From Bellilinea caldifistulae (lineage in GTDB: Bacteria; Chloroflexota; Anaerolineae; Anaerolineales; Anaerolineaceae), in contig NZ_LGHJ01000013.1 of the NCBI RefSeq assembly GCF_001306055.1, forward strand, positions 180,001-212,000: a stretch of 32,000 nt of DNA, read 5' to 3'. Position numbers and translations under genes: made by a program. The notes beneath the pieces are model-generated. The model made no database searches, was not told the origin of the DNA, and saw only the letters and a program-made list of their open reading frames with translations. Shown here one piece after another: positions 10,695 through 12,402 of the stretch; within the stretch, counting starts at the first letter, position 1, and each line of letters starts with the position of its first letter.

Positions 10695-10722
10695 AGCCAA
10701 TTCCACAGCGGGAGCAGTAACG

Positions 10723-10974
10723 ATGAAGTTGGTCATCACCATTGAATATTGTGCCGTATGACACTATACCGAACGAGCCATCAGTTTGATGGCAAGTCTG
10801 CTGAAACAACATGAATCACGCATTCAACAAATTACGTTGATTCCCTCCGATGGAGGCTGTTTTGAAGTAACCGTCAACGGCAAACGGATTTACTCCAAAC
10901 TGCAAACCCATCGTCATGCCGAACCCGGCGAAATTCAAAATTTACTCTTATCTTATATCAAGGAAGGTGGTTAA
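10723..10974 (+). CDS. SelW/Rdx-family selenoprotein (83 codons) with UGA-encoded selenocysteine at codon 13
   Basis: ATG 10723 has a GGGAG RBS. It reads MKLVITIEYCAV-TGA-HYTERAISLMASLL...IPSDGGCFEVTVNGKRIYSK, and both ORF fragments (10579-10761 and 10786-10974) are in frame 1. The TGA falls at the second redox position of the family's CxxC/CxxU motif. Confidence 0.8.
10759..10761 (+). other. in-frame TGA, predicted Sec recoding codon
   Basis: Context is tgt gcc gta TGA cac (C-A-V-U-H). Confidence 0.75.
10777..10793 (+). promoter_or_regulatory. candidate bacterial SECIS hairpin
   Basis: Perfect 6-bp stem gccatc/gatggc with loop AGUUU, starting 15 nt after the UGA. A weak extension (C10774-G10796, A10773-U10797) crosses a 2x2 internal loop. 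Confidence 0.45.
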
Positions 10975-10978
10975 TTTT

Positions 10979-11965
10979 ATGGCGAAAAAAGGGAGAGTTT
11001 TTTCCGGCGCCCGACCAACCGGCCGGCAACACCTTGGCAATTACCTCGGTGCCATGCTCAATTATGTGGCCCTGCAAGAGGATTATGACTGCATCTACTG
11101 CATCGTGGATGTCCACGCACTTACCACGCTGGAGACCACCCTCGACCTGCGCCAGAATACCTACGAGATGGCACTGGACTGGCTGGCCGTCGGTATCCGC
11201 CCGGAAGAATCGATTGTTTTTGTCCAATCCCACGTACCGCAGGTGATGGAACTGCATACTTATCTTTCGATGGTCACCCCATTGGGCAAATTGACCGATT
11301 TACCCACCTTCAAGGAAAAAGCCCGCGAGCAGCCCCACAATGTGAATTACGGTCTGGTGGGCTACCCGGTTTTGATGACGGCGGATATCGTCCTCTATAA
11401 AGCCGATCTTGTACCGGTTGGCGTGGATCAGGCCCCGCATCTGGAATTTGCCCGCGAGACAGTCCGCTCGTTCAATCACCGATACAACACGCAGGTATTG
11501 ATTGAACCCCAAATGAAGGTGACTCAGGTACCCAAAGTCATCGGCATTGACGGTCAGCAAAAGATGAGCAAAAGCCTGAATAACCACATCGAACTGGCCG
11601 CAACCCCGGAAGAAACCCGCCAGCGGGTCATGCAAATGGTCACCGATCCACAACGCATCCGCCGCAGCGATCCCGGCAACCCGGATGTGTGCAATGTGTT
11701 CAGCATGCACAAAATCTTTTCCAGCCCCGAACAGGTGGAAATGGTCAATACCGAATGCCGCCGTGCCGGGATTGGCTGCGTGGACTGCAAGAAACTGTTT
11801 GCCGAAAACCTCAATCATCACCTGCAGCCCTTCCGCCAGCGCCGCGAAGAAATCTCCCAAAACCCGGATTTTGTGTGGGATGTATTGAAGGACGGCGCCA
11901 AACGCGCAAGTCAAATTGCCGAAGCAACCATGGTGGAAGTTCGGCAGGCAATCGGGTTGCCCTGA
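10979..11965 (+). CDS. trpS: tryptophan--tRNA ligase
   Basis: [16 protein letters not shown] (HIGH-type motif) and KMSKS present. GGAAGGTGG RBS lies inside the end of the upstream gene. The listed Met at 10916 is rejected as an extension. Confidence 0.93.
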
Positions 11966-12402
11966 TGCGCACGGTCATTCAACGCGTCAGACGCGGGGCG
12001 GTCAGCGTGGATGGCCGGCGCATTGCCGAAATTGGCAAAGGGCTGGTCATCCTGATTGGTGTGGGGCCAACGGATACACCCGAAACGGCTCAAGCACTGG
12101 CGCGCAAAATCGCCCAATTGCGCATTTTTGAAGATGATCAAGGCAAAATGAACCTTTCCTTGCTGGATATCGGCGGGGAGGCGCTGGTAGTTTCTCAGTT
12201 CACCCTGTATGCAGATGCCCGAAAAGGCAATCGCCCATCCTTTACCGATTCTGCCCCGCCCGAAATTGCTGCCCCTCTAGTGGAGCGGTTTGCCGGCTTT
12301 TTACGGGAACTCGGCATTCCCGTTCAATGCGGTGAATTTGGAGCCCACATGCTGGTTGAAATTGAAAACGACGGGCCGGTCACCATCTGGCTGGAAAAAT
12401 AG
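11965..12402 (+). CDS. dtd: D-aminoacyl-tRNA deacylase
   Basis: MRTVIQRV...GLVILIGVG...[17 protein letters not shown]. The ATG overlaps the trpS stop by 1 nt (cTGATG). Confidence 0.9.

Follow-up and report, generated by a model that had tools for sequence, protein, structure and literature searches.

The 32,000-nucleotide stretch of the genome of Bellilinea caldifistulae, a member of the Anaerolineae (Chloroflexota), analyzed here (hereafter, the window; positions 180,001 to 212,000 of the forward strand of contig NZ_LGHJ01000013.1, NCBI RefSeq assembly GCF_001306055.1) carries, at positions 10723-10974 of its forward strand, an open reading frame (ORF) with an in-frame TGA. We predict, with high confidence, that this is one gene that is translated into a selenocysteine (Sec)-containing SelW-like protein of the Rdx (SelT-SelW-SelH) family. 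The translation comprises 83 residues, including Sec13: the frame runs from MKLVITIEYCAV through the TGA at 10759-10761 into HYTERAISLMASLL and, past a terminal KEGG, to the TAA stop at 10972-10974.

The mechanism that we propose follows the established bacterial pathway by analogy. SelB-GTP carrying Sec-tRNA(Sec) would bind an mRNA hairpin at 10777-10793, the putative Sec insertion sequence (SECIS), and Sec would be delivered to the ribosome at codon 13 once the UGA occupies the A site. The product would be a small thiol/selenol oxidoreductase with a Cys10-x-x-Sec13 redox center. Its gene would be the first cistron of a selW-like/trpS/dtd operon in which the translation of trpS is coupled to the end of the SelW-like gene.

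Reading frame and protein family

The initial annotation of this locus, made from the sequence alone, recognized two fragments in frame 1 that are split only by the TGA at 10759-10761, and both the coordinates and the translation proved to be accurate. Its placement of the start of the downstream fragment held in part: TTG 10786 is indeed the first start found by the ORF lister, but the public product starts with ATG 10789. A Shine-Dalgarno (SD) sequence, GGGAG (10710-10714, forward strand), is separated from ATG 10723 by an 8-nt spacer, whereas none precedes the downstream Met; both observations, which were part of the initial annotation, can be read directly from the sequence. In all six orthologs in which the upstream region was inspected, GGAG or GAGG is found ahead of a start that is located 11-15 codons before the TGA.

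The public records for this gene hold only a 61-amino-acid (aa) form that starts with MASLL (10789-10974, forward strand; GAP11515.1, KPL75947.1 and UniRef100_A0A0P6XJL9), is named 'SelT/SelW/SelH family protein' and lacks the redox center. An exact look-up of the full-length sequence, with X in place of Sec, matched no entry. The 61-aa protein is a gene-calling artefact, produced because gene callers halt at the UGA and resume at the next Met. The sequence, including the TGA, is identical in four independent assemblies (the NCBI isolate genome, a JGI metagenome and two Logan assemblies), none of which shows TGC or TGT at this codon, and therefore the TGA is not a sequencing error; the window sequence also matches contig DF967971.1 of GCA_001050215.2. 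Furthermore, TGA is the true stop of 10 of the 21 other genes in the window, where it is the commonest stop codon, which implies the standard genetic code.

For the profile searches, Cys was substituted for the in-frame stop. The resulting protein scored 68.5 bits against Pfam Rdx (PF10262; cut-off 22.6), with residues 5-75 aligned to profile positions 2-72 of 74, and 55.2 bits against TIGR02174 (CXXU_selWTH; cut-off 34.2). The PF10262 match takes in the N-terminal CxxU segment, in agreement with the SelW/Rdx-type identity that was proposed at the outset. The 62-aa fragment downstream of the TGA, searched alone, still scored 41.9 bits against Pfam Rdx. The score against the NCBIfam equivalog NF041051 (SelTWH_Campy), 75.3 bits, is under the cut-off of 88 bits, and therefore we assign the protein to the broad Rdx family only, not to the Campylobacter-type equivalog.

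The nearest solved relatives by sequence (2fa8, 3dex, 2p0g and 2obk) are bacterial Cys-type SelW-related proteins. The redox motif of the window protein, Cys10 (TGT)-Ala-Val-Sec13 (TGA) at 10750-10761 of the forward strand, aligns with CTQC of 2fa8 and 3dex. In this alignment, YCAV-U corresponds to YCTQC, and the TGA stands opposite the second Cys of CxxC, that is, at the position where the initial annotation had expected the family to carry Cys or Sec.

The unedited ortholog P0011, which shares 65% identity with the window protein, was modeled with AlphaFold. The model, with a predicted local distance difference test (pLDDT) score of 94.1, consists of beta1 (3-10), the motif loop (10-13), alpha1 (16-33), beta2, beta3, beta4 and alpha2. 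Its best structural matches are these SelW-related proteins, with a template modeling (TM) score of 0.87 and a root-mean-square deviation (rmsd) of 1.2 A for 2fa8, followed by MIEN1, mouse SelW and thioredoxins. Judging from this ortholog model, the SelW-like product is predicted to have a thioredoxin-like Rdx fold with the CxxU motif at the junction of beta1 and alpha1.

The Cys-type SelW-related structures (2fa8 Atu0228, 2p0g, 2obk, 2oka, 2ojl and 3dex) have the motif at the same position and resemble the ortholog model closely (TM 0.83-0.90, rmsd 1.0-2.4 A, 23-35% identity), but they contain CxxC, need no SECIS and are approximately 20 residues longer. Eukaryotic Rdx proteins (SelW, SelT, SelH, Rdx12 and MIEN1) also have a thioredoxin-like fold in which beta1 and alpha1 flank a CxxU or CxxC motif, as is the case here; the structures 2npb (mouse SelW) and 2ljk are matched by the model at a greater distance (TM 0.65-0.74).

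Conservation of the TGA codon and the adjacent hairpin

A search for homologous proteins returned 679 sequences, mostly of about 61 aa and beginning just past the TGA position, the Bellilinea entry among them. A scan of genomes, one per species, with the part downstream of the TGA as the query, limited to 600 candidate stretches, confirmed at least 539 relatives; the counts out of 80 species given throughout refer to the best 80 of these at least 539 relatives, all 80 of which are Anaerolineae or other Chloroflexota. When the orthologous loci were compared for TGA as opposed to TGC or TGT, as the initial annotation had proposed, the identical codon was TGA in all 80 species representatives, as well as in four Bellilinea assemblies and two ENA contigs. 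The sole TGC among the fetched homologs belongs to a 49%-identical Cys form (L007, CWEC). The neighborhood of this gene (L007:5319-6799), between a DsbA-like gene and crcB/DUF190, includes no adjoining trpS, and L007 appears to represent a subfamily of its own, not a Sec-to-Cys revertant of the SelW-like locus.

The codons preceding the TGA show the substitution pattern of a translated sequence. The motif Cys and the Tyr that precedes it are the same in all 82 orthologs but are encoded by both synonymous codons (55:27 for Cys and 46:36 for Tyr). Over the nine codons before the TGA, the entropy of the third position in the orthologs is 1.51, compared to 0.70 for the first position and 0.54 for the second. 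Within Bellilinea (the window, L008 and L009), the 12 codons before the TGA have a synonymous divergence (pS) of 0.71-0.89 and a nonsynonymous divergence (pN) of 0.03-0.05. The start is located 11-12 codons before the TGA in 71 of the 82 orthologs (range 10-16) and is ATG in 75; the N-terminus is conserved, and none of the orthologs has a functional start at the downstream Met. These patterns indicate that the codons before the TGA are subject to purifying selection in the same frame as the rest of the gene, also within the genus Bellilinea.

A few full-length metagenomic proteins (P0011-P0017) read YCAVW at the motif. The DNA of this W is TGA (shown for L005), and the respective proteins sit on contigs of 0.6-2.8 kb (e.g. 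L005:57-308, L006:173-424 = P0011; P0012-P0017). These W-for-U calls in the ENA and JGI collections are spurious and apparently result from the choice of genetic code 4 by the metagenome callers. Such 'CAVW' entries could serve as a marker for mining missed selenoproteins.

The hairpin at 10777-10793 (forward strand) consists, in the ViennaRNA prediction, of a 7-bp stem (10777-10783 paired with 10787-10793; GCCAUCA/UGAUGGC) and the loop GUU (10784-10786), which is equivalent to the 6-bp stem with an AGUUU loop that was described initially. The hairpin begins 15 nt past the UGA, again as described, and its loop begins 22 nt past the UGA. As far as the sequence can tell, this element conforms to the rule for bacterial SECIS, namely, a distance of 16-37 nt from the UGA to the apical loop and a conserved G in the loop (PMC10778597, PMC1088965). 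A hairpin is present at the expected place in all 82 orthologs; the loop is located 17-22 nt past the UGA in 76 of these, the first or the second loop nucleotide is a G in 80, and GU is found in the loop in 76.

In alignment A3, which includes window positions 10753-10812 and the orthologs, the Bellilinea register (columns 25-31 paired with columns 35-41) has 87% of the cells paired, compared to 20-53% after a shift of the 3' arm by 1-3 nt. Double-sided changes were detected in five of the seven pairs, with 63 compensatory cells, and none of 500 shuffles matched either the observed paired fraction or the covariation score. Several of the compensations alter amino acids on both arms, for example, Ile(AUC)...Met(AUG), Val(GUC)...Thr(ACG) and Ala(GCC)...Ala(GCG), and therefore the RNA structure constrains the protein sequence. 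The mean energy across the orthologs is shifted only modestly relative to the synonymous-recoding null (z = -1.0) because the encoded peptide, A-[IVA]-[SG]-L-[MTA]-A, is palindrome-prone, hence our reliance on pair counts.

The pair counts assign 27 of the 82 orthologs to a second register (CGGGCC-GUGA-GCCUG), about 4-5 nt nearer to the UGA. Both registers encode the peptide RAVSL, by different codons; the loops are GUU or GGUCU, 21-22 nt past the UGA, in one register and CGUGA, 17 nt past the UGA, in the other. The second register was observed mostly in orthologs whose proteins end in ...LVGE, a distribution that suggests a clade-specific shift. The GGUCU loop, which we take to be the loop of the SECIS of Escherichia coli fdhF and Moorella fdhA, occurs in 13 orthologs. 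The Cys form L007 lacks the hairpin, with three of seven and one of six pairs formed. Thus, the SECIS role that had been proposed for the hairpin is supported by the expected distance, the loop G, the covariation and the absence of the hairpin from this Cys form.

The SECIS of the E. coli fdhF (SelB) type is likewise a hairpin immediately 3' of the UGA, within the ORF, with the loop at 16-37 nt and a loop G, usually GU. The differences are that the Bellilinea loop is GUU (or AGUUU), with no evident bulged U, and that the SelW-like orthologs have two registers, with spacings that differ by 4-5 nt. Eukaryotic SECIS elements, in contrast, sit within the 3' untranslated region and are read by SBP2 and eEFSec, not by SelB (PMC10778597).

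Selenium decoding and alternative explanations

Several results weigh against the prediction of a functional selenoprotein gene. Taken by itself, the window hairpin is no better than chance in comparison with dinucleotide shuffles (z = -1.3) and unexceptional in comparison with synonymous recodings (z = -0.5); the significance of the hairpin comes from the comparison of orthologs only, not from the window alone. An Rfam scan of the window matched no family, a negative result that says little because, to our knowledge, Rfam includes no model for bacterial SECIS. No selA, selB, selC (tRNA-Sec) or selD was found in the 32-kb window plus 10 kb on each side (~51 kb of the 3.7-Mb genome) using tblastn with SelA, SelB and SelD of E. 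coli and SelD of Anaerolineae, and ARAGORN gave no match in the window. Nor was a Bellilinea SelD present among the 120 matches listed (62-100% identity) when proteins were searched with the nearest Anaerolineae SelD at hand; the list was filled with SelD sequences of metagenomic Anaerolineae, and because of this saturation, the missing Bellilinea SelD is uninformative. Failure to locate the sel genes of Bellilinea reflects the coverage of the genome and does not indicate that the machinery is absent.

The relatives offer indications of Sec decoding. In 19 of the 80, a selD gene is located 3-7 kb from the SelW-like/trpS operon, and in all 18 of these genes that are readable, the catalytic site contains an in-frame TGA (NCAG-U-ASKL), the 19th gene being cut by the contig end; therefore, the clade decodes Sec. 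The other 61 of the 80 lack a selD within 10 kb and retain the TGA in the SelW-like gene all the same, and therefore the position of selD is simply variable. SelB has been reported in Anaerolinea thermophila and in single-cell genomes of Anaerolineales (PMC4959059).

The relatives with a nearby selD are L062, L027, L052, L019, L038, L033, L078, L073, L023, L032, L014, L047, L017, L083, L022, L058, L071, L072 and L074, with the gene located, for example, at L047:13526-14593 and L052:8615-9673. The database entries of these Sec-type SelD proteins are N-terminally truncated, at about 320 aa. The genes beside selD in L047 (cellulase, deaminase, gamma-glutamyltranspeptidase, UvrC and a GTPase) are unrelated to selenium. 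In Bellilinea itself, contig L091 (3834-9881), approximately 1-7 kb past the right end of the window, carries a cluster for a xanthine-dehydrogenase-like molybdenum hydroxylase (FAD_binding_5, Fer2, Ald_Xan_dh_C/MoCoBD and CoxG) together with a xanthine/uracil permease, and cyclase and AllG genes are found farther away. Certain molybdenum hydroxylases depend on selenium; neither selD nor any other marker of the selenium-dependent hydroxylase trait was seen in this region of L091.

Among the alternatives, the ancestral gene could have encoded a selenoprotein, with Sec decoding since lost in Bellilinea and the locus persisting as a non-functional relic. Such a history would be compatible with the occurrence of selD near the operon in the 19 relatives but not in Bellilinea or in Thermanaerothrix L010 and L015, its closest relatives, and with the fact that no Bellilinea SelD was recovered among the 120 matches listed. 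However, a relic would be expected to decay or to revert to Cys, whereas three Bellilinea species retain the TGA, all seven stem pairs and the start codon intact. Moreover, both upstream and downstream of the TGA, pN/pS is far below 1, with synonymous sites near saturation (pS up to 0.89), and 61 of the 80 relatives, likewise without selD within 10 kb, keep the TGA. Loss of decoding thus appears very unlikely.

Alternatively, the UGA could be read through without Sec, either by a near-cognate tRNA (tRNA-Trp or tRNA-Cys) or because the code is reassigned, to give CxxW or CxxC. The Trp calls at this codon in orthologs P0011-P0017 and the fact that the Sec machinery was not located in Bellilinea (~51 kb; 120 listed SelD matches) point in this direction, but the former are a code-4 artefact of contigs of 0.6-2.8 kb. 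Given, in addition, that TGA is the commonest true stop in the window (10 of 21 genes), that family members have Cys or Sec at this position, that Sec-type selD genes are found nearby in relatives, and that a compensated hairpin at the SECIS distance would be left without a role, we regard such read-through as highly improbable. Finally, the possibility that the public annotation is correct, such that an upstream ORF of 12 codons ends at the UGA and a 61-aa Rdx protein starts separately at Met 10789 (a pseudogene or a split gene), matches the NCBI, JGI and UniProt records and the 41.9 bits that the 62-aa fragment still scores against Pfam Rdx, but is hardly credible because neither strand beta1 nor any of the redox motif (profile positions 1-21) is present in this fragment, no SD sequence is found ahead of 10786 or 10789, purifying selection in one frame acts both on the codons that precede the TGA and on the 10 codons from the TGA to the Met, and the identical split would need to have been preserved in 80 of 80 species.

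The trpS-dtd operon and the SelW-like family

Beyond the gene itself, the predicted selenoprotein leads a conserved gene array. The trpS gene (tryptophanyl-tRNA synthetase, TrpRS, 328 aa; PDB matches 2el7 and 2g36) occupies 10979-11965 of the forward strand. Its ATG at 10979 begins 4 nt past the stop of the SelW-like gene, and its SD sequence, AAGGAAGGTGG (10960-10970, forward strand), lies inside the 3' end of the selenoprotein ORF; both features were noted initially and are read directly. The third gene of the operon, dtd (D-aminoacyl-tRNA deacylase; Pfam Tyr_Deacylase), at 11965-12402 of the forward strand, overlaps with its start the trpS stop at 11965 and is collinear in relatives. The leading position of the SelW-like gene, which had likewise been proposed, is conserved: trpS follows in at least 68 of 82 loci. 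The distance from the SelW-like stop to the trpS start is at most 9 nt in 45 of the 68 loci, and an ATGA overlap is present in 24 of the 68; therefore, translational coupling is the norm. Between Bellilinea/Thermanaerothrix and other genera, synteny is lost outside the operon core plus a divergent sugar-transferase gene, which implies that the adjacency is maintained, not merely inherited. The genes downstream of the operon in Bellilinea and Thermanaerothrix differ from those in the relatives with a nearby selD.

Within the selenoprotein ORF, there is also a terminator-like hairpin, CCTCCGATGGAGG followed by CTGTTTTG (10844-10856), which spans the conserved PSDGG codons. This hairpin is probably not functional because such sites occur in the region at the chance level (6 found, 5.1 expected). 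The promoter and terminator scans gave counts no higher than expected by chance.

The TrpRS contains the motif C238-x21-C260-x6-C267-x2-C270, with the Cys codons located within 11690-11788, and each of the 64 orthologs whose gene comes after a SelW-like gene keeps the four Cys. In the [4Fe-4S] TrpRS of Thermotoga maritima, the motif is C-x(21-24)-C-x6-C-x2-C (PMC2954223). The window TrpRS fits this Cys motif of the anticodon-binding domain of the TM0492-type enzyme (2g36), which is its second-best PDB match (3.5e-80). Going by the motif, the downstream TrpRS is probably of the [4Fe-4S] type.

It is conceivable, albeit doubtful and in the realm of speculation, that the junction of the SelW-like gene and trpS is functional rather than historical, the selenoprotein being a dedicated redox partner of TrpRS or the expression of trpS being gated by Sec. 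Under the first option, the SelW-like selenoprotein would keep the Fe-S cluster of TrpRS, or the four cysteines that bind it, functional. Under the second option, Sec decoding at codon 13 would gate the coupled translation of trpS and dtd, so that the level of the tRNA-Trp synthetase would be tied to the selenium and SelB status of the cell. tRNA-Trp is the main near-cognate reader of UGA.

Bacterial SelW-like CXXU selenoproteins with a SECIS inside the ORF have been known since 2005 (PMC1088965) and outnumbered all other selenoprotein families in the Sargasso Sea data (PMC1088965, PMC1794560). The members described by Zhang and Gladyshev (Sargasso Sea and GOS data; Geobacter sulfurreducens, Desulfotalea psychrophila and Symbiobacterium thermophilum) share with the window gene the Rdx fold, the N-terminal CXXU with UGA-encoded Sec, and the SECIS located just downstream, in the ORF, whose apical loop contains a G (PMC1088965, PMC1794560). 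That annotation truncates or overlooks SelW genes has been documented (PMC4607533), and a 2006 survey counted three selenoproteins in three families for all Chloroflexota (PMC1794560). Anaerolineae are not mentioned in the papers that we compared. The window gene differs from the known bacterial SelW-like genes in that it heads a conserved trpS-dtd operon and in that its orthologs use two SECIS registers.

The bacterial SelW-like CXXU family and its truncation in annotation are thus already known, the window gene is an ordinary member of this family, and the findings will not surprise specialists in selenoproteins. New aspects are that the gene is universal in Anaerolineae, that its SECIS comes in two registers, that it is coupled to a probable Fe-S trpS, and that a Sec-type selD is frequently close by. 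A systematic annotation error is corrected: the catalytic N-terminus with CxxU is missing from the Bellilinea and Levilinea records examined, and most of the ~60-aa homologs stop short likewise. Because at least 80 species of Anaerolineae, a group of bacteria abundant in anaerobic digesters and sediments, have the same interrupted gene in their DNA, the estimates of the selenoproteome and of selenium dependence for this group are too low. The locus further provides a natural example of SECIS evolution within a coding sequence, in which pairs of amino acids co-vary for the sake of the stem and two registers encode one peptide. The conserved operon linkage to a probable Fe-S TrpRS offers a concrete lead on the function of bacterial SelW-like proteins, and either form of a functional junction with trpS, if true, would give a bacterial SelW-like protein a physiological role for the first time.

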